Shown one piece after another: positions 1 to 55,390 of a DNA stretch of 55,390 nucleotides (its first letter is position 1; each line of letters opens with the position of its first letter). This DNA comes from a virus (lineage: Duplodnaviria; Caudoviricetes). The notes beneath the pieces were generated by a model that ran no database searches, was not told the DNA's origin, and saw nothing but the letters and a program-made list of their open reading frames with translations. Where the stretch lies: positions 1 to 55,390 of IMG/VR virus record IMGVR_UViG_3300036790_000109; one strand, written 5' to 3'. Both the position numbers and the translations under genes were made by a program.

Positions 1-324
1 CGCCGCGCCCCGGTAGCCAGTTGCACTCGCCGCGCCCCGGTCGCCAGTTGCACTCGCCGCGCCCCGGTCGCCAGTTGCACTCGCCGCGCCCTGGACGCCA
101 GTTGCACTCGCCGCGCCCTGGACGCCAGTTGCACTCGCCGCGCCCCGGTCGCCAGTTGCACTCGCCGCGCCCCGGTCGCCAGTTGCACTCGCCGCGCCCT
201 GGACGCCAGTTGCACTCGCCGCGCCCCGGTCGCCAGTTGCACTCGCCGCGCCCCGGTCGCCAGTTGCACTCGCCGCGCCCTGGACGCCAGTTGCACTCGC
301 CGCGCCCCGGTAGCCAGTTGCACT
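1..324 (-). repeat. 27-bp tandem repeat, 12 units, encoding SATG-XX-GAA
   Basis: Unit cgccgcgccc(c/t)gg(tc/ta/ac)gccagttgcact repeated head to tail with no spacers. Confidence 0.97.
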
Positions 325-651
325 GAAACCTTCGGGCTTGGAGCGGGAGAACGTGTAGTTAACAGCAGCTTGGATCAGTGCGCCCAAAGAGATCGACGCT
401 TTGACCCGCAGCACTGAACTCGCGACTTTCGCGTCGTCTCCATGCTCCACGAGCATCCCGTCCTGCTCCACAACCGCGTACACGGATGAAGCCGGCGCGT
501 AATAGTTGAATACGTCGAGCGGGTACGCACAGGCATGGAAGCCGCTTTCACACGGAACGACTTCACCGGTGTGCTTGTACTCACCACCAACCTCGAACTG
601 GACCCCACGGCACTTCCAGTCCAAGCCAAAACCCTTGTATGAAGTAATCAT
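1..651 (-). CDS. DUF7666-like repeat protein, N-terminal part (continues across the window end to 55066)
   Basis: Manual translation from ATG at 651 (ATGA overlap with upstream stop, GGAGAG SD): MITSYKGFGLDWKCRGVQFEVGGEYKH...CESGFHACAYPLDVFNYY...SATG(XX)GAA repeats. Missing from the ORF track because it runs off the end. Confidence 0.85.
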   Translation of the reverse strand, partial: MITSYKGFGLDWKCRGVQFEVGGEYKHTGEVVPCESGFHACAYPLDVFNYYAPASSVYAVVEQDGMLVEHGDDAKVASSVLRVKASISLGALIQAAVNYTFSRSKPEGFSATGYRGAASATGVQGAASATGDRGAASATGDRGAASATGVQGAASATGDRGAASATGDRGAASATGVQGAASATGVQGAASATGDRGAASATGDRGAASATGYRGAA

Positions 652-1361
652 CTCACTCTCCGGTAAGGTAACTTGAAGTGCTCAATGGCCGCAGAGATTG
701 TAAATTTCCGGTTGAACTCGCCGATGACGCCGGGCTTCGTGAGGTTGTCGATATGCCCAACATCCGCACCGACCGTATCGCCGTCCCGCCGCTTCGGCCA
801 CGAGCTTCTATCAGTCCAATCGGGGTACTCCCCCAGCACTGCGTCGACATCGAGCCAGTCTCCTTCGTTGATGTGCCCCGTGTGCAGGCCGCCGAGCGGT
901 CGCGTCGGGGCGAACATCATCTGCGCCGGAACAAATGACTCTCGAGCGATGAGCTCAATTCCCACATCCAGCGCCACTCGGCGAGCGACAGCCTGGAACT
1001 CGTCGTACCCCGCAGGGCGCGACAGCGGTACCACGACCCGGAATCGGGGACGGTCGGGGCGATGGCTGAAAGTGGTGTACATGGCGAAGGCGAGGCCGCC
1101 CCACTTGTTGAGAACGTCCCCCCATGTATCGATCGTGACGTGGTCGAAGTCATACGTGATGGCGTGTCGAGCTATGAAGTTCTGACTGTCGCGGTAGACC
1201 GGATCAAACTCGACGGGGCAGTACCAACCGCGCTCTGCCTTGTCGTTGACTTCCGGTGGCAGCTCGGTCAGCCACTTCGCCAGGGACGGCCAGTCGAGCC
1301 AGCTCACCTTGGAGATGGCGGCAAGACTGACCGTCCCGAACGATGTGCACAGGTTGCGCAT
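648..1361 (-). CDS. Primase (prim-pol/VirE-associated type), N-terminal half of a split primase-helicase
   Basis: DFDH motif, YTTFSH..PRFRVVVPLSR, SFVPAQMMFAP, DWLDVDAVL..YPDWTD.SSWP, KPGVIGEFNR; stops after HFKLPYRRVR. Start ATG 1361 by TGATG coupling. Confidence 0.85.
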   Translation of the reverse strand: MRNLCTSFGTVSLAAISKVSWLDWPSLAKWLTELPPEVNDKAERGWYCPVEFDPVYRDSQNFIARHAITYDFDHVTIDTWGDVLNKWGGLAFAMYTTFSHRPDRPRFRVVVPLSRPAGYDEFQAVARRVALDVGIELIARESFVPAQMMFAPTRPLGGLHTGHINEGDWLDVDAVLGEYPDWTDRSSWPKRRDGDTVGADVGHIDNLTKPGVIGEFNRKFTISAAIEHFKLPYRRVR

Positions 1362-1477
1362 CAGGCACAGAACAGCAGGTTGACGACGGTGCGCGCGGTC
1401 AAGCCGACGATGATCCCGAGGGTAAGACCCACGGATAGCCCCGCGGCGAGGAACTCCCAGCGGAGTGAGCGCTGCAT
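1361..1477 (-). CDS. Small membrane peptide (38 aa)
   Basis: Manual translation MQRSLRWEFLAAGLSVGLTLGIIVGLTARTVVNLLFCA; TGATG-coupled on both sides. Confidence 0.6.
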   Translation of the reverse strand: MQRSLRWEFLAAGLSVGLTLGIIVGLTARTVVNLLFCA

Positions 1478-2055
1478 CACGCACCCGCCTGGTTCGGGGC
1501 GAGCTGCGAACCCGGGGTAACAGGGACGCCAGGCACAGGGATGCAGTAAATCAGCACGGACTGGCCGGGTTTTATCTCCGCGCTCGAGGAGATGAGCGTG
1601 TCATTGCCTTGCTTGACGCACGTGTTGAGATCGGGCGCGTGGCCCAACAGCTTCTGGCCGATAAAGGCCCCGTGGCTGTCATAGCCGACCGCGATAGCGA
1701 GGTAGGTGAGGGTAGCGACGTTGGTGGGCTGCGCAATGACGTGGCGTATCGGAGCCTTCATGTCGAACTGGACGTGGAGGCACGCGGCGGCGATCTTCGC
1801 GTCTTTCGGTATTGCCCCGTGCGCGTATGCGTCCGAGATGATCGACATGTTGTGCTGCTGGCAGAGCGCTTCCTTCGGGCTCTCACCGAGGAGATCGGCG
1901 CCGTCGAGATGGCCGCCTGCGTCGTACTGCAGTGCGAAGCCGATGAAGTCCTCAACGTGGGTGACGGTCTGAGCGCCGACGGCTCCGGCGGCAACTGCGT
2001 ATGACAGCGCAGCGATGAGATACAAAGTCTTGAAAGACTGAAGGAAGTTCTTCAT
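1477..2055 (-). CDS. Exported protein with internally duplicated Cys-containing domain
   Basis: N-terminal signal peptide; repeats FALQYDAGGHLDGADLLG...C and LAIAVGYDSHGAFIGQKLLG...C. Confidence 0.75.
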   Translation of the reverse strand: MKNFLQSFKTLYLIAALSYAVAAGAVGAQTVTHVEDFIGFALQYDAGGHLDGADLLGESPKEALCQQHNMSIISDAYAHGAIPKDAKIAAACLHVQFDMKAPIRHVIAQPTNVATLTYLAIAVGYDSHGAFIGQKLLGHAPDLNTCVKQGNDTLISSSAEIKPGQSVLIYCIPVPGVPVTPGSQLAPNQAGA

Positions 2056-2073
2056 GTGCCTGATGCCTCAGGG

Positions 2074-2469
2074 TTAGGCGTAGGTGTTGGGGCGGTGCGA
2101 GTAGTCGCCGGCAGCTTTGTGTGCTGCGCGGGCGCGAGCTTGGAACGCATCGCGGTCGGCGTCGGCTTCGACAGAGGAGGGCGGCATCGGGAAGATGCGC
2201 ACGCCAGCGAGCGGATGCGGCGCGGGGCGATACGTGACGAATGTTGATTCGGGACCGTAGCCCATCGCGCGATCTCGCGCAGGTTGCCAAGCCCAATCGC
2301 CGCTCAAACTTCTTTCAGATAGCGTCGACAGGGTCGGACCTTCGCCCGAGCTCGCCCTGCCGTCCCCGGTGCATCGACGCGCCTCGTATAGCGCTAGCTG
2401 ATATTCGGGGGTGTCCAACACTCGCTCGTTTGATTCGAGCTTTTCGTTGCTGTATTTCGCGTGAGCCAT
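2074..2469 (-). CDS. Hypothetical protein
   Basis: 131-aa ORF with GGAG SD; first gene after a terminator. Confidence 0.5.
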   Translation of the reverse strand: MAHAKYSNEKLESNERVLDTPEYQLALYEARRCTGDGRASSGEGPTLSTLSERSLSGDWAWQPARDRAMGYGPESTFVTYRPAPHPLAGVRIFPMPPSSVEADADRDAFQARARAAHKAAGDYSHRPNTYA

Positions 2470-2497
2470 TTTCCGTTTTCTCCAAGGTGCCCACGCG

Positions 2498-2527
2498 AGA
2501 GTACGCCGCGAATTTTCACATCCGCAA
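2498..2527 (-). promoter_or_regulatory. Candidate sigma70 promoter for the replication operon
   Basis: TTGCGG-18 bp-TACTCT directly downstream of the terminator U-tract. Confidence 0.35.
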
Positions 2528-2530
2528 GCA

Positions 2531-2566
2531 GAAAAAGAAAAAGCCCGCTCAAGGGCAGCGGGCTTT
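2531..2566 (-). terminator. Rho-independent terminator
   Basis: AAAGCCCGCT (2540-2549) / AGCGGGCTTT (2557-2566) stem followed on the minus strand by a U-rich tract. Confidence 0.8.
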
Positions 2567-2646
2567 AACAGAAGTCAAATTTATTTCAATAATGCGTTTT
2601 CGTTATGTCTCCTTTCTATTGCAGAATGTGCAAATCGGTGTAGTAT

Positions 2647-3333
2647 TTACGCCGCCAATCGGGACCGACGGCTTTCTGCCGGAACGAACAGGTTCCCACC
2701 CACCCGCAAAGGCCGATTCTCCCTCGCCGCGATCTTCGGGTCGGTCGTCACCGAGGCGTTCGCGGCGAGCTGCTTGAGGATATGGTCCATAGCCTCCCTG
2801 AGCACCGCTACGCCGGCTTCCTTGTCCTCTTTCGCTACCTGCTTGGCGAACCCCACCAGGCCGTCCGTGAGCTTCCTAGCGCGCATCTTGATGCGTTCCG
2901 GTGTCAAAGCGTGCTTTCGAGAAAGGCCCACTGAGGCGTGCTCGAGCTGTGACTTGCTCGTGCGTTTCGCGTCCAGCTTCATGAGATCGTGTTCCGGCGC
3001 ACGAAGCCACTTCGCGATAGTTCCGTGAGAACTACGGGCAAAGTTCAAACGCCTGTTACGCTCCTTCCCGAAGCGGCTGCGCGGCACTTCATCCTTGGCG
3101 AGGATTTCGTCCGTGGCAATCGTCTCCCACACGACCTTGTAGAAGCGTCGGTGTACGGCCTTCAAAACTACTCGCTGCGCAGCTTGGTCAGCCTTTCCAT
3201 CGAGCTCGGCTTGCGCCGTCTCTATCAACGCTCGAAAATACTCGCCGCGGGCACCGTCCCGGGTGCGTCGTCCATCCATAAACTGGCGGGCAACAGCGCG
3301 GACTTCAGCCGCGCTCCACGTCTTTGCGGTCAT
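2647..3333 (-). CDS. Hypothetical basic protein
   Basis: 228-aa ORF with phage-like codon usage; no motif recognised. Confidence 0.7.
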   Translation of the reverse strand: MTAKTWSAAEVRAVARQFMDGRRTRDGARGEYFRALIETAQAELDGKADQAAQRVVLKAVHRRFYKVVWETIATDEILAKDEVPRSRFGKERNRRLNFARSSHGTIAKWLRAPEHDLMKLDAKRTSKSQLEHASVGLSRKHALTPERIKMRARKLTDGLVGFAKQVAKEDKEAGVAVLREAMDHILKQLAANASVTTDPKIAARENRPLRVGGNLFVPAESRRSRLAA

Positions 3334-3435
3334 GCGTTCTTCTCACTTTATGTCAATACGAGCTAGATTGCTCGGTGAGGAGACTAGCACAAACCGTGCC
3401 GACCCGAAAATGTCGGCAAAATCGGACAATTGTAA

Positions 3436-4098
3436 TTACGCGCGGCGGGTCATACGCGACAACGTCTTGGCTGTGAACTGCTTCCCGTGAGCTGTGCGAT
3501 GGCCGGCCGCGTTGAGACGCGCAGCACGCTCTGCCAGGCTTCCCGTGCCCGCTGCGACGAGCAGGGGCGCGTCTCTGCGGGTAGCTTCCATGATGCGCTT
3601 GGCGGCCGTTACCGCGCCGCCGCGGGCGGGCGCGGGAGATCCTAGCTTCACCCCCTTGGCTTTCAGCACCCGCAGCGCCATTTTGGTGCGTTCGCTGATC
3701 TGGTCGCGCTCAAACTCGGCGAGTACCGCCAGCATCCTGAACACCATGCGCCCGGCCGCGGTAGTCGTATCGATTTTCTCGGACAGGCTGACCAAGTCCG
3801 CGCCTTGCCGCTCGAGCCGGTCAGCGATGTCCAGCATGTCTCGCGTACTGCGCGCCAAACGGCTGATAGAGTAGGAGACGAGCGCCGTTCCCCTGACTGC
3901 CGCGGTAAGTGCCTGCTCGAGTCCGGGCCGTCCTTTGGTGCTCGAGCCCGATATGCCGGCGTCCTCATAGATGGCGATCAAGTCGCCATCGTTGAGCTCG
4001 GTCCACTTCCTGATGCGGTCACGCTGCGCATCCAGCGAGATTCCCTCGGTAGCCTGATCTTGCGTCGAGACGCGGACGTAGCCTATGACTTTCATCAA
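3436..4098 (-). CDS. Small serine recombinase (resolvase/invertase family)
   Basis: GYVRVSTQDQ, EDAGISGS, SISRLARS, DTTTAAGRMVFRMLAVLAEFERDQISERTK; short C-terminal DNA-binding region. Confidence 0.93.
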   Translation of the reverse strand: MMKVIGYVRVSTQDQATEGISLDAQRDRIRKWTELNDGDLIAIYEDAGISGSSTKGRPGLEQALTAAVRGTALVSYSISRLARSTRDMLDIADRLERQGADLVSLSEKIDTTTAAGRMVFRMLAVLAEFERDQISERTKMALRVLKAKGVKLGSPAPARGGAVTAAKRIMEATRRDAPLLVAAGTGSLAERAARLNAAGHRTAHGKQFTAKTLSRMTRRA

Positions 4099-8486: not shown

Positions 8487-8984
8487 ATGCCCGTCCCGCT
8501 GTGGGCGCGCCTGCACTTCGTGTGCGCCGCAGATCCGCTGTCGCGGCTGATCGCCTGGTACGGCCGCGGCGCGCAGGGCCTGAGCCACGTCGACATCGAG
8601 CTTCCCGACGGTACGCTGGTCGGTGCGCGCTCGAACGTGATCAACGGCATACCGGCCGGCTTCCAACGTCGACCGGCCAACTACGCGAAATGGATACGCG
8701 TCAGCACCGTCACCCTGCCGCTGACTGAGCTGCAGGCGATGCGCGCGTACCGCTGGGTCCGCAACACCGTTGGGGCGAAGTACGACACGGCCGCCATCCT
8801 CGGGTTCGTTGAGGGGTCGGCGCTGCACAAGCGCGGGGAGTACATCTGCTCGGCGGCCGGCACCGAGTTCCTGCGGCAGGCGGGGAAGCTCCCGACGCTG
8901 CCGATCGCGGCTTCACAGGTAACACCTGACACGCTGCAGATGATGGCGATAGCCGCCGGCGGGAAATGGGAGAACGTGAAGTGA
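8487..8984 (+). CDS. Permuted papain-like (YiiX/NlpC-P60-related) enzyme
   Basis: SHVDI...GAKYD..AILG...YICS (His before Cys). Confidence 0.7.
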   Translation: MPVPLWARLHFVCAADPLSRLIAWYGRGAQGLSHVDIELPDGTLVGARSNVINGIPAGFQRRPANYAKWIRVSTVTLPLTELQAMRAYRWVRNTVGAKYDTAAILGFVEGSALHKRGEYICSAAGTEFLRQAGKLPTLPIAASQVTPDTLQMMAIAAGGKWENVK

Positions 8985-9199
8985 TGCATCCGTCGACTTT
9001 CGAGTACCTGCAACCGACACCGGCGCAGATTGCTGCGATGGCGCGCGTCCGGGGCGCCGCGAAGGCGTACCACGACGTGTTGGATGAAGTGCTCCCCGAC
9101 GGTCCGGACAAGACTTTCGTGATTCGCACGCACCGCTCGAATGCGATGTGGGCGAACGTGGCGCTGACGCGCCAACCCGACGGCGCGCCGCGCGCATGA
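8984..9199 (+). CDS. Acb2/Tad1-like helical hairpin protein (putative cyclic nucleotide sponge)
   Basis: FEYLQPTPAQIAAMARVRGAAKAY...LPDGPDKTFVIR...AMWANVALTR resembles the family pattern. Confidence 0.6.
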   Translation: MHPSTFEYLQPTPAQIAAMARVRGAAKAYHDVLDEVLPDGPDKTFVIRTHRSNAMWANVALTRQPDGAPRA

Positions 9200-47196: not shown

Positions 47197-47448
47197 CTAC
47201 TTGACCGTCTTCATAACCAAAGCTGCAGCTTGAATTCTCGGGTCGTCTGACGTAGTAAGTTCTGTAACTACTATCATATTTTTACGGCAAAAACTGCATC
47301 CGTTAGCGGGGTGATTCTTCGAATCGCTGGCGCCACATGCCCAGCAGCCGAAAGAAAGCGACAACCCGCATGCAGCAGCGTCATCGATCAGCCCGCGAAC
47401 GCGCTGTAAAAGGCGATCGATACGCGCGCGGTAGTCAGCTTCTGTCAC
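47197..47448 (-). CDS. Hypothetical protein with two CxxC motifs
   Basis: CWAC...CSFC; GTGA-coupled. Confidence 0.6.
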   Translation of the reverse strand: MTEADYRARIDRLLQRVRGLIDDAAACGLSLSFGCWACGASDSKNHPANGCSFCRKNMIVVTELTTSDDPRIQAAALVMKTVK

Positions 47449-48227
47449 GTTCCCACCTCCATAAGTTCCTCATCCGCATCTCGATAAAACGTCCCACCTG
47501 TCTCGTGCGACACCTTGTACGAAGCTCGCGTTGAGCACGTCGTCTTCTTGCCGCAGAACTTGCAGTGCGGGCCCGCCTTGTACTGATCCTTCAGCTTCCC
47601 AGCCAACAGCGCCTCGGTGCGTGGCCGCACTACGTCGTATCCCCACTGGAGCAAATGCCCGACGCTGATCTCCTCACACTCCACTTCGGCTGCCACGCCT
47701 CTACGCGGTTGCGAAATGCGGTTGATGAACTTCTTGAACTTGTATATCCAGTCGTACTTGAAGAAGACGCCAAGGTCGTACAGCTTGAGCTGCGAATTAT
47801 CCTTTGCGCTGACGACGACTCCCTTGCCGCCCTTAAAATCGGTGACGACACACGCATCTCGATAAGGTCGTGCATCATCGAGCGTTCCGAACCCCCCAGG
47901 CACCAACTCGTCATACGTCACGATCTCCTCAACCAGCGCCGGCCCCGGCAGCTTCTGCACGCTCTCGACGAACGTGTCGACGGCGCGGATCATCGACTTC
48001 CCGACCTTGAACTGGTACTCGCCGCTCTGGAGGATCTTGCCTTTCCAGTGCTCCGCCGATCGTCCCTCGTTCCGTGCCCACTCCGAGAGCGTGTGCATGG
48101 CCGTCCCTTCGGCCGCGTACTCGGTTTGCCCCTGGCCTTCACCCGCGCCGCAGTTGAGCCAACGCTCGGAACTCGACGGGCCGAGAGGGCTGTGTGGCCC
48201 CGGCGGGATGACGATGACTTCGCTCAA
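47445..48227 (-). CDS. DUF2800 (Cas4-like PD-(D/E)XK) nuclease, short form
   Basis: HSPLGPSSSERWLNC, AAEGT..H, FGT.D, DFK.GKG, NSQLKLY, HCKFC....C; TTG start 48227. Confidence 0.85.
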   Translation of the reverse strand: MSEVIVIPPGPHSPLGPSSSERWLNCGAGEGQGQTEYAAEGTAMHTLSEWARNEGRSAEHWKGKILQSGEYQFKVGKSMIRAVDTFVESVQKLPGPALVEEIVTYDELVPGGFGTLDDARPYRDACVVTDFKGGKGVVVSAKDNSQLKLYDLGVFFKYDWIYKFKKFINRISQPRRGVAAEVECEEISVGHLLQWGYDVVRPRTEALLAGKLKDQYKAGPHCKFCGKKTTCSTRASYKVSHETGGTFYRDADEELMEVGT

Positions 48228-48769
48228 AGCAATTCCCGAGCTCGCTTCAAGAACTCTTCCTCCACCGCTGCTGGATGCCAGAGCGGCATGCGCACGCCGG
48301 TGCCCCAAAACCCGGCCACTTCCTGTCGGAACACGGCATCGTCCGTAGTCTTCGTCCAGGCAAGCCACTCGGGGTCCAACCCGAACACGCAGAAGATGAG
48401 TTTCCCCGTCTCGTGCTCGATCCGTCGGTACTCCGCCATCAACGGCGCGTGTTTCACCGGCGAGGCGATATCGTTCAAGTACGCCTCGCTTGCATCGTGT
48501 AGAAGCCCCGCGAGCGTCGCCTCCTTCGATCCGGCGAACCGGAGCGCCATCCCCGCCGACACCTCGAGCGAATGCTGCCCCACGCTGTAATGCTGCGGGC
48601 AGGCGCCCGTGTACCGGCACAACAGGCTCAGGTGATGGGCAATGTCCTCGATGCAAATGTCTGCAGCCCGAAGCGCAAGCGGGTTCACATACTTGCCAGT
48701 GAACGTCCTGATTTTCCCTTTGCGCTCTTGGGCGTCGCGCGAGAGGGTTGTGATGTAGTCCGCTTGCAT
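48224..48769 (-). CDS. HD-domain deoxynucleotide phosphohydrolase (YfdR/YfbR-like)
   Basis: IEDIAH.LS..CRY.G, YSV.QHS, LLHDASEAY..DI..PVK. Confidence 0.88.
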   Translation of the reverse strand: MQADYITTLSRDAQERKGKIRTFTGKYVNPLALRAADICIEDIAHHLSLLCRYTGACPQHYSVGQHSLEVSAGMALRFAGSKEATLAGLLHDASEAYLNDIASPVKHAPLMAEYRRIEHETGKLIFCVFGLDPEWLAWTKTTDDAVFRQEVAGFWGTGVRMPLWHPAAVEEEFLKRARELL

Positions 48770-48785
48770 GTCCGGTTCTCCTGTG

Positions 48786-48908
48786 AGGCTATAGCCTGTC
48801 AAACGTCCGCTGCTTGACAGGCCACAACCTGTCGGCTGGTTTTCCGCCCATCTCCCGCGCGCTCGGTGCTTTACTGCCGCGGCAGGACAGCTACCACGAG
48901 CGCGCGGG
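48786..48908 (-). ncRNA. Candidate structured RNA / processing element
   Basis: 17-bp stem 48786-48802 / 48814-48830, complete only on the minus strand via three G-U pairs; 12-bp stem 48854-48865 / 48897-48908. Confidence 0.45.
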
Positions 48909-48918
48909 CGGGACTCGG

Positions 48919-49662
48919 TCAGGTCTTGGTGGTCGGAAGCGCCTTGACGGCGGCAATCACCGCCGCATACTTCTCGGCCGGGAGCGCCTTGAGCGACGGC
49001 CCGCTGCCGCCACCGGCAGCCGGCGCGACGCCGCCGTGCTCCATCACGACCTTCTGCACGGTCTCCTGGCTCGTGCGCTTGCCGGCCTCAACCAGCGCGG
49101 CCCGCACGTCCTCTACCGTCGGGGCGATTGCTGCAGGCATCGTGCCGGTCTCGAACGGGTCGACTTCGGCCGCGGGCTCCCCGGGTGTGCTCTTCTTGGC
49201 GGCGGCCGCCAAGACCAGCGCGTACTTCTCCGGGGTGCGCTGGAGCTCGGTCAGGTTATCGACGCCACTCGCTTCCTTGAGCACCTTCAGGGCCTCGGCC
49301 TGACTGGTGACCTTGGACAGCTTCGTCAGCGCCTCGCGTACCTGATCGATGGTCGCCGTAACGGCGGCAGCGGGCGGGGCCGTATTGAACGGATCGGCCT
49401 CTACGACCGCCGGAGCGGCCGCAGGCGCCGTGCTGGCGGTGGGGGCGTCACTGCCACCCTTCGCCGGGCGGCCGCGCGGCTTGGGAGCCGCCTTGTCGGC
49501 TGTGGAGGCGGCTGGCGGCACCGAAGCCACGGTGCCTGACTGCGCGTAGATCGGCTTGCCGCCGTACGTACCGTTCACCGCCTCGGCGAGCGTCGAGATC
49601 GCCCCGGCTATCAACGCCAGATTGGTCGCGACGCGGCTCAGGGCGTCTTCTTGCTCTGCCAT
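48919..49662 (-). CDS. Ala/Pro-rich protein with two helical repeat domains, typical of APSE-like replication modules
   Basis: TIDQVREAL...PEKYALVL and TVEDVRAAL...AEKYAAVI; two ADPF/VDPF motifs. Confidence 0.75.
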   Translation of the reverse strand: MAEQEDALSRVATNLALIAGAISTLAEAVNGTYGGKPIYAQSGTVASVPPAASTADKAAPKPRGRPAKGGSDAPTASTAPAAAPAVVEADPFNTAPPAAAVTATIDQVREALTKLSKVTSQAEALKVLKEASGVDNLTELQRTPEKYALVLAAAAKKSTPGEPAAEVDPFETGTMPAAIAPTVEDVRAALVEAGKRTSQETVQKVVMEHGGVAPAAGGGSGPSLKALPAEKYAAVIAAVKALPTTKT

Positions 49663-49697
49663 ATGTCAAGTCCTCTGCTGTGGTGGAAAAGTAGAAA

Positions 49698-50093
49698 TTA
49701 CAATCTGGCGCCGCGGGCCAGCGGCGCGCCTTCGGCTTCGATTTCCCGCTGCAGGAGCCGAAGCGCCCGCCAGGCGGCGGCGGCGGAGTGCCGCACTTCG
49801 ACTTTCGTGCCATCGGCAAGGATCATCTCGTCCCATGTGCCGCGGTCCTTCAGGTGGCGCAGCAATGCATCGGCGTCATCGCCCGACTTACCGCGGGCGT
49901 CGTGCAACGGCTCGCCGGGGTTGTGCTTCGCGTTGCCCCAGTAGCTCAGCATCGCTACAGCCGTTAGCGCATCGGGGAAGTAATCGAGACAGCCCGTGGC
50001 GAGCGGCATCGTCTTGCGCGGATCGACCGGTTTGCCGGTGCCCGCGACGCCATCATTAACGGCCAACTGCTTCTCAAAATCGTACTGGATCAT
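49698..50093 (-). CDS. dATP/dGTP diphosphohydrolase-like (DUF5664-like) protein
   Basis: DYFPDAL.AVA..S..GNAKH, ADALLRHL, H.AAAAWRAL. Confidence 0.7.
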   Translation of the reverse strand: MIQYDFEKQLAVNDGVAGTGKPVDPRKTMPLATGCLDYFPDALTAVAMLSYWGNAKHNPGEPLHDARGKSGDDADALLRHLKDRGTWDEMILADGTKVEVRHSAAAAWRALRLLQREIEAEGAPLARGARL

Positions 50094-50953
50094 GTCAGTT
50101 TGCTCTTTCGTGTTTCCACGTCCGTCAGAAGTTTCTTCCCGCGGCACCACCCGCCGCACGACGTGCACTGGTACCTCGTGTACACTCCTTGTTGCAAAGT
50201 CGTAAACCCGGCGTGTCGGAGCTTCGGACTTGCACATTTCGGGCAGACTCCTCCGGCGCGTAGGTCATACGTTCCAAGGTTGGGATGGGTTGCCATCCAG
50301 GGCCGCAGGCGGTAGTACACCTTGCGCGTCGAGACGATGTCCTGGATGTTGTATTTCTTGAGCTCTTTCCAGGCGAGCGGGTTGTCCTTCAGGCACTCGA
50401 TCCAGAGTTCGAACCCGGGGAACTTCTTGTGCTCCGACTTCGGGCTGTCGGTAAGCAGCTTCGATGTCCAGGCGAGCTTCTGACTCGTGAAGGCGAACGC
50501 CTTGCGGGCCTCCAGCATCGTGTCGATCACGCGGATGGGCGAGTAGGGCGTGTAGCCGTGCTCGATCAGGCGCGCGTTGATCTTACGAACATCGAACCGC
50601 TTGCCGTTCTGGGCGACGACTAGGTCGGCCTCATCCAGCAGCCGCCATACCTGCTCGAGGAGCATGCTGTCATCGCGCACCTTCTCCGCGCCGCGACCGC
50701 CGGTGTCGGCATAGAACGGCTTGCTGCCATCCAGCCACTGCGCCGCGTACGAGAGGATGGTCCAGTCGGTCTTGATGAAGTCGATGCCGATGTTCTGGTC
50801 CCAGAGGCCCCACACATACGCCTCGATCGGCGCGGACTCGATGTCGAGCACGAGGATGCGGGGGTCTTTGGGCGCGGCAACGGGGTCGAGCTTCTCCGTA
50901 TGGAGGATGCGACCGCCACCGTTGTCGGGGAATGAGAGCTTTCTCACGCTCAT
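50090..50953 (-). CDS. RNase H-fold DEDD exonuclease with C-terminal zinc ribbon
   Basis: LDIESAP, QNGKRFD, IDT, YNIQDI, CPKC...CTSC. Confidence 0.88.
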   Translation of the reverse strand: MSVRKLSFPDNGGGRILHTEKLDPVAAPKDPRILVLDIESAPIEAYVWGLWDQNIGIDFIKTDWTILSYAAQWLDGSKPFYADTGGRGAEKVRDDSMLLEQVWRLLDEADLVVAQNGKRFDVRKINARLIEHGYTPYSPIRVIDTMLEARKAFAFTSQKLAWTSKLLTDSPKSEHKKFPGFELWIECLKDNPLAWKELKKYNIQDIVSTRKVYYRLRPWMATHPNLGTYDLRAGGVCPKCASPKLRHAGFTTLQQGVYTRYQCTSCGGWCRGKKLLTDVETRKSKLT

Positions 50954-51126
50954 TTCGCCATCCCTTTGATCTTGGAAATGCGTGAGGCGAGCGTCTGCAA
51001 CGTGATGCCGAGCGCCTTCGCCGCCGCGCGCCGGTCGCCACTCGCCTTGCGCATGGCGGTCACGGTCTCTTGCACCCAGCTACCGTCGCGCTTCTGCGTT
51101 CTGTCGGGGAATGCCAGATTCTTCAC
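50950..51126 (-). CDS. Small Fis-like HTH protein
   Basis: GDRRAAAKALGITLQTLASRISK; GTG start 51126. Confidence 0.7.
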   Translation of the reverse strand: MKNLAFPDRTQKRDGSWVQETVTAMRKASGDRRAAAKALGITLQTLASRISKIKGMAK

Positions 51127-51644
51127 AGTCCTACCTCCGTGACACGCCGCGACCACTCCTGCACCGCCTCACGATCGAGGGGTAGCTGCTGGTACTGCGG
51201 CTGGATGTTCATGTTGACGAGCTGCCGGAACCGGTACAGGTCGAACGGCACGCCCAAGCGCTTGCACATGTCGACGGCATCGGCCGTCCTGAACGCCGAC
51301 CGCCAGTCGTACATCTTGGCTCCCGGGATCGCCTGCATCCGGCGAAGGTGCCGGGCGTGGTCGAGCTCGTTCATGCCGAGGACGCGCAGCGATGCGTTGA
51401 TCTCGCGCGGGTCGCGATAAATCAAGATCTTCGGGCACCTCTGGGCTAGCACCCACTCTGGGTGGAGGAGGGCCGCAGTGCAGGAGATACCGATACGCCG
51501 ACCCGGAATGTGAATCTGCTGCAACTGGTCGGCCGTGTACTCGAGGAACGGGTCGTGCAGGCACAGCGTCTCGTCCGTCGTCAGGAGGTTGGCGAGCCAG
51601 GTCGTTGCAGAGCGCGGACCGGCGAGGACCATGAAGTTGATCAT
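51123..51644 (-). CDS. Sulfotransferase-like / P-loop protein
   Basis: GPRSATTWLANLL...CLHDP, IYRDP.EI.ASL. Confidence 0.65.
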   Translation of the reverse strand: MINFMVLAGPRSATTWLANLLTTDETLCLHDPFLEYTADQLQQIHIPGRRIGISCTAALLHPEWVLAQRCPKILIYRDPREINASLRVLGMNELDHARHLRRMQAIPGAKMYDWRSAFRTADAVDMCKRLGVPFDLYRFRQLVNMNIQPQYQQLPLDREAVQEWSRRVTEVGL

Positions 51645-51898
51645 GCGGCCACCTGTTTGTGGGATTCGAAGTCGAGCTGCTCATCTGTGAGATACGGCTT
51701 GTAGACGGTGTTGCGCGTCTCGAACACCGGGCCGCCTGCGCCGCGGGCGCGCACGAGCTGCACGCGCGTCGTCCTGATCCACTCACCGGGGGCCGGTATC
51801 TTTGCGCTGTGGTGCTCGCGCAGGTAGACGAATGCCAGTTCCCCGGGAACTACTTCACCGGCGAGATCCACGTAATGCACTTCGGGCTTGTCGCTCAC
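51641..51898 (-). CDS. Hypothetical phage protein
   Basis: WIRTTRV...FETRNTVY motif; GTG start 51898. Confidence 0.7.
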   Translation of the reverse strand: MSDKPEVHYVDLAGEVVPGELAFVYLREHHSAKIPAPGEWIRTTRVQLVRARGAGGPVFETRNTVYKPYLTDEQLDFESHKQVAA

Positions 51899-52095
51899 TT
51901 TGAACTCCTCGGGACTGCGGGGTCGCGGACGATGCCGGGCGTGGCTCCTATCTGGAGTTCCATCTGGGCGTCGCCGTCGTAGCCGGTAGCGCCCGCGTGG
52001 TTGCACCACGGGCCGTCGTCGCGTTCGGCGACCGTGCGCATGTCGTGCTGCTCAACGCCGCAACGCGGACAGCGGTATACGTACAAAGGGCTCAT
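51895..52095 (-). CDS. FmdB-like zinc ribbon protein
   Basis: MSPLYVYRCPRCG. Confidence 0.7.
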   Translation of the reverse strand: MSPLYVYRCPRCGVEQHDMRTVAERDDGPWCNHAGATGYDGDAQMELQIGATPGIVRDPAVPRSSK

Positions 52096-52412
52096 CGATC
52101 TACTCCCAACATGCGGCCGAGCACCCAGTGACTGCCTGTTATGACGCCCGCGATGGATGTGAAGAGAAGCCAGCGCTCGCGGCTTACCGCGGCGGTCTTC
52201 AGCGACCGCAGCCAGTTGCGCTGAATGTCAGACGAAGAGTGCACGGTGTTGCGCAGTGCCCAGAACGTGTCGAGCGCTACAGCCAAGAAGTCTTCCTTGT
52301 CGACGTTACGCATGCGCCCCGTGTAGTGACCGGCCGCCTCGAGCATTCGCGCGGCGTGCGGCGGCTGGAACATGTCACGCTCGAACGTCTCTCTGTCTTC
52401 TGTGTAAATCAC
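52092..52412 (-). CDS. Hypothetical protein
   Basis: GTG 52412 with GGAG SD; GTGA-coupled. Confidence 0.6.
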   Translation of the reverse strand: MIYTEDRETFERDMFQPPHAARMLEAAGHYTGRMRNVDKEDFLAVALDTFWALRNTVHSSSDIQRNWLRSLKTAAVSRERWLLFTSIAGVITGSHWVLGRMLGVDR

Positions 52413-52594
52413 AGGCAGTCTCCATGGCACTCACAGGCGTTGCATTGAGCGTCGAACAGGTCAGCTTCGGCCGTCTCGGCGCGACTTATGGCGGCGTCCA
52501 ACTGCGACATCAGGCCGTCGCGTAACTTCTCCAGTTCTTCTACCTTGTTGCGCAAGTGCCAGTTCTCGCGGCTTAGCTCCAGTGATAAGCTCAT
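52409..52594 (-). CDS. Small coiled-coil protein
   Basis: ATGA-coupled to the helicase half. Confidence 0.6.
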   Translation of the reverse strand: MSLSLELSRENWHLRNKVEELEKLRDGLMSQLDAAISRAETAEADLFDAQCNACECHGDCL

Positions 52595-53967
52595 CCCAGC
52601 CAGCCCTCTGATCCGGATGTTACGAGCGATGTCAGCGAGACGCGGTCCTCGCCGTGTTTGAACGCCATGCGCTTGGCAATCAGGCTAGTGAGCGCGGCCA
52701 CGGCGTGCGAACGACGCTGGTCGCGGCCGTCGCCGCGCGGCACGCGCGCCTTGAAACCTTCGATCAAGTCCTCTTCAGCCACCGTGCCGGAGGGCGCCAT
52801 CGTCTTCAGGAGATCGTGAATGATCGCCTCGCGCGGCCCGAGCTTGGCTTTGCGGGTGCTCGGCGTGTTCTCCGGCGCGTTCTCAACGTGTTCGATCACG
52901 CAGCTTGACTCCTCTTCCCCGTCCGCATCGACCCCGAGCGGGACGACCTTCAACTTGAAACTGTGCGACTCGCCATCCGAGCCGTCTTTCATCTTGGTGA
53001 CGGTGGCGGCACGGAAATCACCATTTCGAGTGATCTCGATTTCTGCATCGGCAGCAGCACGGAGCCCGCTCCAGCCGCGAGCACCTTTCGCTGCATCCTT
53101 ACCCGAATGATGGATAAGGACGACAAGTGCTCCGGTCTGTTGATGGAGGAACTTGCAATGGGACAGGACGAGGCCCATATCCTCACCCGAATTCTCGTTC
53201 CCGCCAGGCGTCGTAGCAGAGAGAGTGTCGACGACCAGGACATCTAGGCTGCCCCACGTGAGGATTGCTCTCGTGAGCGCTGCAACGTCTTTCGGCTCGC
53301 GTAGATTTGGCGCGTCGGATATGACACCCACATCCAGTTCAGCCAGCTCCACTTGATGCCCCCGAGCGTACGCCCGGAGTCGCGCTTTAAATCCGCCAGC
53401 ACCTTCCGCGCAAACGTATCCCACCCGTCCTTTAGCGGTGCGCTTACTGCGCCACTCGATCCCCCGGGAAACTGCCGCGCACAGATCGAGAGCAAGGAAC
53501 GTTTTACCGCTCCCAGATTCTCCATAGATAACGGCCAGTTCAGCGCGAGGCAGCATGCCACGCACAAGCCACTCCATTGGCGCGCCGCTTGAGAACTCAA
53601 CTGCTGAATGGACTGTGAAACGGCTTGCTGCGTCTGGGCTGTCATGGACTTGGAGTTCCTCAGTTACTCGCGGTAGCGGGCCGAGATCAGCAAGCTCATC
53701 GGTCGAGCGAGCGCACCGGATCTCTGGACAGGTGTTAGCGAGTTCCACCATTGCGTGATAGCTTGGTCGATCAGTGATTGGAAGTTCTTCACTGCCGCGA
53801 TCTCGGTCCCCAAACAGGTGAAGTCGTACGAGATCGAAAGCTGAATGCGTTCCCCTCGCCGGATCTGTGTCGTGGTGCGAAGTAATGCTGGTATCGTCGT
53901 CATAGACAGCAACCCCTTCAGGTCGTGAGCCGGCGGTGTAGGTCCATCGGGATGTTTCGCGCGTCAA
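52591..53967 (-). CDS. C-terminal half of split primase-helicase (rest of primase accessory domain plus AAA_25/RepA-like helicase)
   Basis: RWTYTAGS..G..VYDD...SHHDTDP....SAFDLVRLHLFG; GESGSGKT, VVDTL, IHHSGKD...ARGWS; probable TTG start 53967. Confidence 0.85.
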   Translation of the reverse strand: MTRETSRWTYTAGSRPEGVAVYDDDTSITSHHDTDPARGTHSAFDLVRLHLFGDRDRGSEELPITDRPSYHAMVELANTCPEIRCARSTDELADLGPLPRVTEELQVHDSPDAASRFTVHSAVEFSSGAPMEWLVRGMLPRAELAVIYGESGSGKTFLALDLCAAVSRGIEWRSKRTAKGRVGYVCAEGAGGFKARLRAYARGHQVELAELDVGVISDAPNLREPKDVAALTRAILTWGSLDVLVVDTLSATTPGGNENSGEDMGLVLSHCKFLHQQTGALVVLIHHSGKDAAKGARGWSGLRAAADAEIEITRNGDFRAATVTKMKDGSDGESHSFKLKVVPLGVDADGEEESSCVIEHVENAPENTPSTRKAKLGPREAIIHDLLKTMAPSGTVAEEDLIEGFKARVPRGDGRDQRRSHAVAALTSLIAKRMAFKHGEDRVSLTSLVTSGSEGWLG

Positions 53968-54080
53968 CGGAGCACCCAGCCGGCGTACAGGTTGATGCCC
54001 TTGATGATCCACGGCAGCGCGAGCACGGAGCACACCGCGAACACCGTGAACTTAACCCAGAACCGTGTTTCATCGCTCAT
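53964..54080 (-). CDS. Small membrane peptide (38 aa)
   Basis: Manual translation MSDETRFWVKFTVFAVCSVLALPWIIKGINLYAGWVLR; coupled on both sides. Confidence 0.6.
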   Translation of the reverse strand: MSDETRFWVKFTVFAVCSVLALPWIIKGINLYAGWVLR

Positions 54081-54976
54081 GCATCAAACCAGTCCGGTTG
54101 CTTCGATGAACGCCGCGGCGACTTGCGGTACGATTGCATTGCCGTAGCCCCGCAGGAGTCCCACACGGCCGGGTATCCCATGAGCCAACGGGAATGAGCC
54201 GGGTTCAACTGGCCGCCACTTGCCGTCTCGGCACCACACAACGTCGCTTGGCGTCCAAGGAGCGCGTTCACCGGCACGTCCGCCTGCTGACACGCCCCGT
54301 CCTTCCAGTCCCGTGTTGTTGTTGTTGCCCAGCCGGCTTGCAAGCTCAGGCTCGTCAAGCTGACGCCGCACGCCCCGTTCAGCGCCGCCTTTCGCTCGAG
54401 GAATCGCTCCGGAGTACCGCCCGCTTCCCTCGCCGCTGACATCGCCCAGCTCGCCGCGTCGACCAGCGTCGTCCCCGCGTGCGCCTTCTTCGCCCCGGGC
54501 GACCGCTTCGCCGTTGCGTTGCGCGTGTTCGATGCGTCCAAGGTGGTGGTGGTGGGCCACCCAGTAGAGGCGCTGCCTGATGTGCGGTGCCCCGACGCCC
54601 GCAGCGCACAAATCTGCCGCTTGGCAGGCGTAGTCCGAACCTTCCAAGTCAGCGAGAACAACGTCGAGCCACGCGAGGCCAGCCGGGCTCGCAACCTGCT
54701 CTCCAAAGATGACTGAAGGCGCGTGCTGGTCGATGAGGTACCCGAAGGAGGGCCAAAGGTGCCGAGGATCATCAAACCCTCCGCCTTTGCCTGCCGCGCT
54801 GAAAGGTTGGCAGGGGCAAGAGCCGGTCCACACGGCTCGGTCGTCGGGCCATCCAGCCAATCGGAGCGCGTACGACCAGCCGCCAATGCCGGCGAAGAAG
54901 TGACACTGGGTATATCCAACCAAGTCTCCAGGTCTAACGTCATCAATGGACCGCCCATCAACATGACCGCTGGCAA
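54077..54976 (-). CDS. Alternative-frame (beta-like) subunit of C5 DNA methyltransferase; start uncertain
   Basis: WPT-type repeats and motif IX-like GQLNPAHSRWLMGYP; its stop overlaps the next ATG. Confidence 0.6.
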   Translation of the reverse strand: MPAVMLMGGPLMTLDLETWLDIPSVTSSPALAAGRTRSDWLDGPTTEPCGPALAPANLSARQAKAEGLMILGTFGPPSGTSSTSTRLQSSLESRLRARLASRGSTLFSLTWKVRTTPAKRQICALRASGHRTSGSASTGWPTTTTLDASNTRNATAKRSPGAKKAHAGTTLVDAASWAMSAAREAGGTPERFLERKAALNGACGVSLTSLSLQAGWATTTTRDWKDGACQQADVPVNALLGRQATLCGAETASGGQLNPAHSRWLMGYPAVWDSCGATAMQSYRKSPRRSSKQPDWFDA

Positions 54977-55052
54977 TGTGGCCTTCTTTGATCAACTCAC
55001 GAAGCCACGCGGCAGCGCGCGGATCGTTCTCGTTGTAGTAGGCGAGGGCCAT
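54084..55052 (-). CDS. DNA (cytosine-5) methyltransferase, alpha-like subunit
   Basis: FFAGIGG, GSCPCQPFS, GEQV, PHIRQRLY, GYGNAIVPQV. Confidence 0.92.
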   Translation of the reverse strand: MALAYYNENDPRAAAWLRELIKEGHIASGHVDGRSIDDVRPGDLVGYTQCHFFAGIGGWSYALRLAGWPDDRAVWTGSCPCQPFSAAGKGGGFDDPRHLWPSFGYLIDQHAPSVIFGEQVASPAGLAWLDVVLADLEGSDYACQAADLCAAGVGAPHIRQRLYWVAHHHHLGRIEHAQRNGEAVARGEEGARGDDAGRRGELGDVSGEGSGRYSGAIPRAKGGAERGVRRQLDEPELASRLGNNNNTGLEGRGVSAGGRAGERAPWTPSDVVWCRDGKWRPVEPGSFPLAHGIPGRVGLLRGYGNAIVPQVAAAFIEATGLV

Positions 55053-55065
55053 AGTTCTTACGGCA

Positions 55066-55390
55066 CTATTCCTTGACCATGACGAATTTGCCGCGCTTCA
55101 GCGTGTACCACGTATCCGCTTTAATGCCTGATGTCTTACCAACAACAGCTCCAGCGGCAGCGATCACGTTTCCGTAGTCGTCGCGTTCCACGAGGAGGAG
55201 GGCGCACCCATCCGCGCCCTTAACTTTGCCCTGGTAGCCAGTTGCACTCGCCGCGCCCCGGTCGCCAGTTGCACTCGCCGCGCCCCGGTCGCCAGTTGCA
55301 CTCGCCGCGCCCCGGTCGCCAGTTGCACTCGCCGCGCCCTGGACGCCAGTTGCACTCGCCGCGCCCCGGTCGCCAGTTGCACTCGCCGCG
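55066..55390 (-). CDS. DUF7666-like repeat protein, C-terminal part
   Basis: Repeats, then GKVKGADGCALLLVER...GIKADTWYTLKRGKFVMVKE and stop at 55066. Confidence 0.85.
   Translation of the reverse strand, partial: AASATGDRGAASATGVQGAASATGDRGAASATGDRGAASATGDRGAASATGYQGKVKGADGCALLLVERDDYGNVIAAAGAVVGKTSGIKADTWYTLKRGKFVMVKE
55228..55390 (-). repeat. 27-bp tandem repeat, ~6 units, same as 1-324
   Basis: Identical unit sequence; the window ends mid-unit. Confidence 0.97.

Follow-up and report, generated by a model that had tools for sequence, protein, structure and literature searches.

The window analysed here is the whole of the IMG/VR virus record IMGVR_UViG_3300036790_000109 (Duplodnaviria; Caudoviricetes), a stretch of 55,390 bp that is classed as linear and has a CheckV completeness of 100%. 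It carries a primase-helicase whose two parts are encoded by separate genes, and every gene treated below is on the minus strand. The N-terminal half of the enzyme (N-half; 648..1361, 237 amino acids (aa)) was delimited from its open reading frame (ORF) and from PHROG profile ranges. Its start at 1361 agrees with the N-termini of its relatives, and it ends with KPGVIGEFNRKFTISAAIEHFKLPYRRVR and a stop codon, the last residues being LPYRRVR. The C-terminal half (C-half; 52591..53967, 458 aa) was delimited from its ORF, Pfam, PHROG and the heads of its relatives, and encodes a RepA-like helicase. Its N-terminus reads LTRETSRWTYTAGSRPEGVAVYDDD, followed further on by SHHDTDP and AFDLVRLHLFG. It is initiated by a TTG codon, which occupies the same position as the M-S/G-R/K-E-x-S-RWTY heads of the relatives. 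The first-pass annotation, made from the sequence alone, had described the end of the N-half, the beginning of the C-half and two start/stop overlaps, ATGA at 648-651 and TTGA at 53964-53967; re-reading of the ORFs returned all of them exactly.

The N-half comprises a primase-polymerase domain of the archaeo-eukaryotic primase (AEP) type and the first two helices and first strand of a small middle domain. The C-half continues with the remainder of the middle domain (RWTY...SHHDTDP...AFDLVRLH), to which a linker, a RepA/DnaB-like RecA-fold helicase domain (AAA_25) and a C-terminal domain are added in this order. Neither catalytic domain is divided by the break. The C-half was matched by the Pfam family AAA_25 (E 2.3e-35). 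A Pfam search of the N-half returned no family, and PHROGs and a fold search were needed to recognise it. Annotation pipelines will label the halves "hypothetical protein" and "AAA ATPase" and miss the primase. A sequence-profile search of solved structures likewise recovered the helicase part only, as RepA. Because searches with the model of a whole 687-aa fused homologue were filled by RecA-fold matches, its N-terminal 352 residues were folded separately. Residues 1 to about 204 of the fused homologue showed the AEP fold: the closest match was the PrimPol of cyanophage S-2L (Z 10.1, root-mean-square deviation (rmsd) 3.2, 142 residues aligned, Foldseek E 2e-6), and RepB' of RSF1010 matched the model of the N-terminal domain with Z 7.5 and rmsd 4.1 over 148 aligned residues. 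The window N-half has the invariant aspartates D71 and D73 of the AEP DxD motif and the nearly invariant S99/H100. Judged by the fold of the fused homologue together with the DxD motif and the conserved histidine, the N-half is a predicted primase-polymerase of the AEP superfamily. The helicase part matched RSF1010 RepA with Z 22.7 and a profile E of 4e-8, obtained with the fused homologue or its profile. The window C-half retains the invariant residues G149, K155, D247, E258 and R297, including the Walker A lysine and the Walker B aspartate. The C-half is a RepA/DnaB-like RecA-fold hexameric helicase, as its AAA_25 match, Walker A and B motifs and RepA fold indicate.

In many homologous loci (numbered here with the prefix L) the two parts are encoded by one gene. 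The PHROG profile phrog_256 matches the N-half at its positions 73-246 and the head of the C-half at 255-348, so that the two ranges abut; in phrog_9765 the corresponding ranges are 77-263 and 271-365. The fused proteins of L004 (687 aa) and of L005/L006 (693 aa) are single ORFs, in which the region of the break reads LPYTPTSNPERWTY and LPYVSGSSEERWTY. In L004 and L005 seven residues separate LPY from RWTY, and over fused homologues of 676-798 aa the spacing is six or seven residues. The distance between LP[YF] and RWTY is seven residues in 128 and six in 14 of 144 fused proteins. The best 120 matches to the first 400 residues of a fused protein include 115 proteins of 658-798 aa and five of 483-536 aa. 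Among the loci with homologues of the N-half, the reading frame continues in frame through the junction in 84 of 86 rows and, in a further count, in 77 of 83, both counts including some duplicate contigs. The first-pass annotation had described the motifs on the two sides of the break as contiguous in one domain, and both the abutting profile ranges and the in-frame loci bear this out. The halves of the window add up to 695 aa (237 + 458), as against 687-693 aa in the fused proteins, and therefore nothing is missing from the split enzyme.

The position of the break was located on an AlphaFold2 model of the fused protein P0001, built with a 111-row alignment (mean predicted local confidence, pLDDT, 92.1). 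In this model helices at 215-223 and 226-232 are followed by a strand at 237-239, a short turn, strands at 245-248, 257-260, 265-268 and 277-280, and a helix at 281-293; the confidence across the turn is 95-97. A second model, of the N-terminal 352 residues, has a pLDDT of 92.6 and agrees with the first. The cut domain is a unit spanning residues 213-330. Its extent was also marked by weak fold matches to the zinc-binding domain of DnaG primase at residues 211-325 (Z 5.4) and 211-348 (Z 5.3), which fall below the trust level of the tool and are used for no other purpose. The cut leaves two helices and one strand of this middle unit on the primase chain and places the rest on the helicase chain.

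In the window, the TGA stop of the N-half (650-648) overlaps the ATG of the next ORF (651-649). The upstream junction at 648..665 reads TAC CGG AGA GTG AGA TGA, and the codons of the RRVR tail contain a Shine-Dalgarno-like GGAGAG run. At the other side of the insert, the TTG of the C-half overlaps the TGA of a 38-aa ORF. The insert begins with the gene for a protein with a DUF7666 domain and collagen-like GAASATG(D/V/Y)(R/Q) repeats. The 5' part of this gene (1..651) runs off the window start and contains 12 copies of a 27-bp repeat at 1-324; its 3' part (55066..55390) consists of 27-bp repeats at 55228-55390 and a short C-terminal domain that ends at 55066. The product is matched by Pfam DUF7666 (E 9e-31) and Collagen and by phrog_4433 (E 6e-77). 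The second gene (54084..55052) encodes a C5 cytosine DNA methyltransferase of 322 aa, matched by Pfam DNA_methylase (E 6e-15) and by phrog_363 (E 3.5e-77) over residues 3-319. It had been taken for a methyltransferase in two frames, which proved incorrect: the gene is complete in a single intact frame that aligns in one piece with phage methyltransferases (98-99% coverage, 52-55% identity), and the second is an open frame that overlaps it. The third ORF (53964..54080), which begins 3 nt past the methyltransferase stop, encodes a hydrophobic peptide of 38 aa and has no family match in Pfam or PHROGs. None of the three ORFs matched a nuclease family in Pfam or PHROGs, in agreement with the earlier description of the insert as one without an endonuclease. 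The insert is at least about 2.06 kb long; the record breaks inside the 27-bp repeat, so its copy number is not fixed.

The open frame within the methyltransferase gene is shifted by +1 (54077..54976, an ORF of 299 codons in a frame open for 302), and its product matches phrog_1008. In each of three homologous genes (L414, L415 and L416; 59-64% GC) the +1 frame is open for 289-318 codons and the +2 frame contains 8-18 stops. Amino-acid identity in the +1 frame is 41-44%, no higher than in the +2 frame. In one Xanthomonas phage record both overlapping ORFs are annotated as methyltransferases. The open +1 frame may be a conserved overlapping gene or an effect of codon usage.

As the insert extends across the ends of the record, the linkage of these ends was assessed. 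Both lie in one array of the 27-bp repeat, in the same orientation and phase, and they overlap by 7 nt exactly or by 142 nt with three mismatches. In L256, L257, L260 and L264 a single gene encodes the N- and C-terminal domains of the DUF7666 protein in one frame. The gene order in L003, L175 and L004 leads from the counterparts of the window genes 4098..648 straight into those of 54033..47445. Logan contigs of a second soil run, X2, in which 16 of 17 pieces are at least 99% alike to the window, and of the likely source run, X1, cross the N-half stop and the DUF7666 start without differences. Repeat phase, the one-gene relatives, gene order and the CheckV completeness make the circular linkage of the window ends well supported, although indirectly so. 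The window may nevertheless be suspected of misleading us, either as an assembly artefact, with ends that are not joined, or as a dying gene left by a recent insertion, since the linear-classed record breaks inside a tandem repeat and the window departs from the consensus at 10 of 123 conserved columns. Against this speak the X1 and X2 contigs over the N-half stop, the gene order in the three relatives, the CheckV value, conservation of 92% in the window and 98% in L003 and L175, and the occurrence of the same split inside contigs of 25-59 kb and at the same boundary in 119 other clusters. We regard an artefact or a pseudogene as highly improbable.

The stand-alone N-halves were collected among proteins of 130-415 aa, which gave 172 matches at E <= 1e-20. 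Of the 120 clusters listed, which include that of the window itself, 119 end four or five residues after LP[YF], mostly with RRVR or RRVK, and the remaining one likewise ends with RRVR. At least 119 other clusters at 90% identity are thus stand-alone N-halves with the boundary of the window and a tail of the form xRVx-stop. Among stand-alone proteins with the length of the C-half, 20 of 27 start with M-x-x-E-x-S/A-R-W/Y, at the position of the TTG in the window. Two scans of viral contigs added little: one for the junction pattern found seven stretches, two of which are known relatives and five without primase homology, and one with the protein P0121 found 61 loci whose best matches of 80 residues or more reach 29-35% identity, giving no genomic context for that split lineage.

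Six further loci show the same break with a different insert, the splits lying in the interior of the 25-59 kb contigs. In L003 (N-half 68% and C-half 66% identical to the window) the insert consists of ORFs of 81 and 135 aa. In L083, which shares one contig with L170 and L174 (N-half 68%), it holds a 74-aa ORF, a 59-aa membrane protein and more small ORFs, and in L172 (68%, partial N-half) it begins directly with the 59-aa protein of L083. L173 (72%) carries a 185-aa protein related to the window ORF 2055..1477 (E 2e-16), and L175/L182 (70%) a 60-aa ORF and a 150-aa protein with an HExxH motif. The sole insert of L181 (47%) is a 156-aa ORF of the Pfam family Endonuclease_7 (E 3e-20). The HExxH proteins of L175 (6848-7300) and L003 (7585-7992) are 57% identical and form the second cargo gene in both loci. 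Leads to their function are a phage cluster auto-named "DUF4157 domain-containing protein" (score 0.97) and a cluster at rank 23 in which 21% of the members have PF13699; nothing among the cluster matches points to a nuclease. The DUF7666 relatives were found near a primase half in 0 of 18 loci, and in one of 18 a methyltransferase match lies about 5 kb away. The cassette of the window is therefore not a recurrent unit, and the set of DUF7666 gene, methyltransferase gene and 38-aa ORF is just what this phage carries in the slot at present.

Since the same break occurs in at least 119 clusters and in six other loci with unrelated and mostly smaller inserts, the cassette is not the cause of the split. 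Of the original proposal, in which the cassette had split the domain, the split within the domain holds and the causal role of the cassette does not. Homologues normally encoded as two genes at this boundary had been named as evidence that would speak against a fission; such homologues are what was found within the clade, and the wider family is fused. Read from these sequences, the split appears to be an old and successful state of a large clade of soil phages, and the gap a variable cargo slot.

The sequences on both sides of the break point to constraint. Conservation was followed at 123 columns with at least 90% conservation in 111 fused proteins. The window keeps 113 of these, L003 and L175 keep 121 each, L173 keeps 115 and L181 keeps 114. 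This comparison with intact homologues, of the kind suggested as a check by the first-pass annotation, speaks against a pseudogene, and both halves appear from their sequences to be under constraint. The proposal there of a stabilised gene fission within a folded domain is borne out by the fused relatives, the cut in the hairpin and the conserved halves.

A structure model of the complex of the N-half with residues 1-130 of the C-half was given a score of 0.70, and the best control among three a score of 0.01; the mark of 0.70 was attained by 58 of 80 solved complexes and two of 110 mismatched pairs. In the three runs at least 34% of the contacts agree, with a partner pLDDT of at least 59. Residues 204-237 and a few core residues of the N-half form the confident interface with residues 5-51, 60-64 and 74-80 of the C-half. 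The model supports binding, so that the two-subunit enzyme suggested earlier is predicted to reassemble and rebuild its middle domain. We propose that the C-terminal helices and strand of the N-half would dock on the N-terminal sheet and helix of the C-half and that the rebuilt middle domain would tether the primase to the helicase. The chief competing explanation is that the halves act as independent proteins without reassembly, as RepB' and RepA of RSF1010 do. These two proteins are among the top fold matches (Z 7.5 and 22.7), and each catalytic domain is complete on one chain. The cut, however, is situated inside a compact unit and not between domains, both pieces of the middle domain are conserved in the split lineages, and the modelled interface is built of exactly the split pieces. 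Independent action of the halves seems unlikely to us.

The junctions of the split loci resemble each other closely. The upstream junction GGAGAGTNNGATGA is common to L003, L083, L172, L173 and L175, and L181 has GAGCGAGTTCGATGA. At the nucleotide level the window reads TACCGGAGAGTGAGATGA, L003 TACAGGAGAGTCGGATGA, L083 and L172 TACAGGAGAGTTCGATGA, L173 and L175 TACCGGAGAGTGCGATGA, and L181 TTTGAGCGAGTTCGATGA. Past the ATGA the split loci diverge immediately. A Shine-Dalgarno-like (A/C)GGAGA run lies in the tail codons, 7 nt ahead of the cargo ATG; the last four codons of the N-half and its stop would thereby also serve the first cargo gene as its ribosome-binding site and ATG. The start of the C-half overlaps the last cargo stop in the window and in L181 and follows it at 2 nt in L003, 3 nt in L172, 4 nt in L175 and 27 nt in L173. 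In none of these six loci is the C-half start preceded by a visible purine-rich ribosome site, and between the halves the gene strand showed no terminator-like site. The cistrons all have the same orientation and are tightly packed. We propose a single transcript that would span the N-half, the cargo and the C-half, with translational coupling along it. Because the C-half has no ribosome site of its own and starts at or just past the last cargo stop, its translation is probably dependent on coupling to the cargo.

A different explanation is that the insert is removed, by DNA excision, RNA splicing, protein splicing or ribosomal bypass, and that an intact enzyme is made after all. A serine recombinase gene (3436..4098) lies about 2 kb from the break, and the inserts vary between relatives as would be expected of mobile DNA; the first-pass annotation had named excision by this recombinase as an alternative. 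The recombinase lies outside the insert, and a homologue is found at the same place both in the fused L004 and in the split L175. The longest word common to both junctions is 8 nt, a length met or exceeded in 54 of 200 shuffles and thus at chance level, so the earlier failure to find a convincing junction repeat stands and excision by the recombinase is not supported. An Rfam search of positions 1-2200 and 52000-55390 gave no match at E <= 0.1. There is no room for intein halves, as the two chains (237 + 458 aa) compare with 687-693 aa in fused proteins and respectively end four residues from LPY and begin six residues from RWTY. The stop, ribosome site and start at the junction are conserved in more than 100 relatives. 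The run contigs on positions 1-3000 show no joint at 648-665 (joints are seen elsewhere, with sides of 20-21 letters; a joint with the far end, more than 20 kb away in window coordinates, is not detectable in them). No RNA run is listed among those that contain the sequence. Removal of the insert by any of these routes is accordingly given very little credence.

The distribution of the split state was examined in a tree of the N-half region with 85 rows, ten of them split; the tail was excluded, and the fused rows had been thinned by dropping every second one as well as five on long branches. The window clusters with L173 (99, a starred branch) within a starred set of ten rows, five split and five fused. 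The split label requires seven changes on this tree, at least four of which are forced by starred branches, and a single split clade is rejected by the approximately unbiased (AU) test (p 0.0006, log-likelihood difference 185). On an earlier tree of 147 rows five changes were counted, at least three of them forced. A valine at position +3 after LP[YF] is present in 10 of 10 split tails and in six of 144 fused proteins. The last 11 nucleotides of the junction of L181 are those of L083 and L172, yet its N-half is only 49% identical to that of L083. The shared junction on unrelated backbones favours spread of the split allele by recombination, which appears to fit these sequences better than repeated independent fission. 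Reversal through precise loss, or tree error from recombination, is possible.

The shared junction and the Endonuclease VII gene of L181 lead us to a hypothesis, by analogy with mobE and mobA, for the origin of the split. A free-standing gene for a homing-type endonuclease would have been inserted at the hairpin loop, as it now is in L181; the split allele would then have spread between lineages by recombination, and other cargo would later have taken the place of the nuclease. We advance this as a hypothesis since a nuclease occurs in only one of the seven distinct split loci whose inserts are visible, and no primase half lies within 4 kb at any of 80 loci that carry relatives of the endonuclease of L181. 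A further-reaching version, in which the break is a portable, protected slot moved by homing-type gene conversion, with the endonuclease lost in some lineages and the cargo retained through the translation of the helicase half, strikes us as conceivable but rather doubtful. If it were true, the cargo of the slot would comprise the methyltransferase, the collagen-like DUF7666 protein, small membrane peptides and HExxH proteins, and imprecise loss of the cargo would be lethal, since translation of the helicase half needs read-through of the cargo.

Taken together, it is likely that the replicative primase-helicase of this phage is made as two polypeptides from two cistrons, cut in the beta-hairpin turn of the middle domain, and that the split is old and holds a translationally coupled slot with variable cargo, possibly seeded by a homing endonuclease. 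Besides the scarcity of the nuclease, several points weigh against this. Production, binding and activity of the two proteins are predictions from sequence and model. Among the conserved columns altered in the window, four (K265, H267, Q278 and N280) belong to the cut domain. The score of the complex expresses confidence of the model, and the alignments held fused homologues, so that the pass may mirror the intact fold. The coupling is deduced from spacing, which in L173 amounts to 27 nt, and in the window a longer frame for the C-half is possible from a GTG at 54033, though it is not conserved in the relatives. The split group was defined only once a first tree was at hand, and the tree could be distorted by recombination inside the gene. 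The X1 Logan contigs end in the repeat on both sides, and the end-to-end link is thus not directly read.

Upstream of the N-half lie an ORF for a 192-aa protein with a hydrophobic N-terminus (1477..2055) and a 39-aa ORF (1361..1480), which are chained to each other and to the N-half by GTGA and TGATG overlaps. The 192-aa protein has a homologue in the cargo slot of L173 (E 2e-16, with 31% identity over 144 residues). Directly before each half and in the slots of relatives there are, repeatedly, small hydrophobic ORFs of 37-59 codons (the window, L083 at 8920-9099, and L172), and all of them are linked to their neighbours via overlapping stop and start codons. A strong terminator-like hairpin with 10 pairs and a T run is found on the gene strand at 2566-2540, downstream of the ORF 3333..2647, and probably lies where the transcription unit with both halves begins. 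Six of the 18 DUF7666 contigs, all from the viral contigs (L258, L259, L262, L263, L269 and L272), end about 90-390 bp past the DUF7666 domain. Short-read assemblies, that of the window included, thus seem often to break at the collagen-like tandem repeats. In L260 three DUF7666 genes are arranged in tandem. L175 and L182 are contigs of equal length (57,124 bp) with identical N-half matches, found among the genome contigs in metagenome-assembled genomes of the unrelated Terriglobia and Stellaceae, and further relatives are binned as Steroidobacteraceae, Saccharibacteria and Nocardiaceae. The host cannot be read from these bins, because the phage contigs were probably binned by chance.

Primases and helicases that work at one replication fork are known in other arrangements. 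In RSF1010 the RepB' primase and the RepA helicase are whole separate proteins, and in T7 gp4 a primase of the DnaG type and a helicase form one chain. The enzyme described here resembles RSF1010 in the AEP fold of its N-terminal domain, which is that of RepB' and of the S-2L PrimPol, and in the RepA fold and Walker A and B motifs of its helicase. It differs from both systems in that one ancestral chain appears to be cut inside the middle domain. Essential genes of phages in split form are known from a few T4-like examples, which are connected with homing endonucleases. No paper containing "split primase" or "DUF7666", and none on this split enzyme, was found in the literature library searched, which does not cover subscription journals.

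The closest parallels are the nrdA gene of phage Aeh1, split by mobE, and the T4 topoisomerase genes 39 and 60, separated by mobA; the same account describes overlapping stop and start codons between free-standing endonuclease genes and the upstream gene (PMC2988022). As in those cases, an essential phage gene for replication or nucleotide metabolism that is contiguous in relatives is cut in an important region into two cistrons, the products of which would have to reassemble, and the start of the insert overlaps the upstream stop. This analogy, drawn in the first-pass annotation, is closer than was thought there, because the only insert of L181 is an Endonuclease VII gene at the same site. 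The insert of the window itself has no ORF of a nuclease family, and the cargo in the slot differs in each relative examined. The present split further differs in being found in more than 100 clusters, scattered on the gene tree, and in that the activity of the split enzyme is putative. In the Aeromonas phages 25 and 44RR, the gene 43 polymerase is described as split, with a seg gene or untranslated sequence between 43A and 43B (PMC2988022). In the account given there, the two polypeptides of this replication enzyme co-purify; as in the loci studied here, the intervening sequence varies between relatives and is not always an endonuclease gene. The enzyme in the present case is an AEP primase with a RepA-like helicase, and the DNA between the halves is made up of accessory genes that are probably translated in tight coupling. 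A third parallel is provided by the fractured genes described by Dassa et al. 2009 (PMC2677866), which have split inteins together with a free-standing endonuclease; their halves are parted by an inserted gene and often stem from phage or environmental DNA. There are, in contrast, no intein halves in the window, and the summed length equals that of the fused protein, so that no ligation by protein splicing takes place.

The sequences thus point to genes in pieces in a new enzyme, within a large clade of uncultured soil phages, and would add to the known cases the persistence of the split, a variable slot without a nuclease and the apparent dependence of the downstream half on the cargo. The split has had time to diversify into over 100 sequence clusters, its gap has turned into a site for swapping accessory genes, and the split state is scattered over the gene tree and yet carries one junction signature. 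The locus offers a test case for the reassembly of a domain cut in a hairpin, for accessory genes anchored by translational coupling, and for endonuclease-seeded insertions that outlive the endonuclease.

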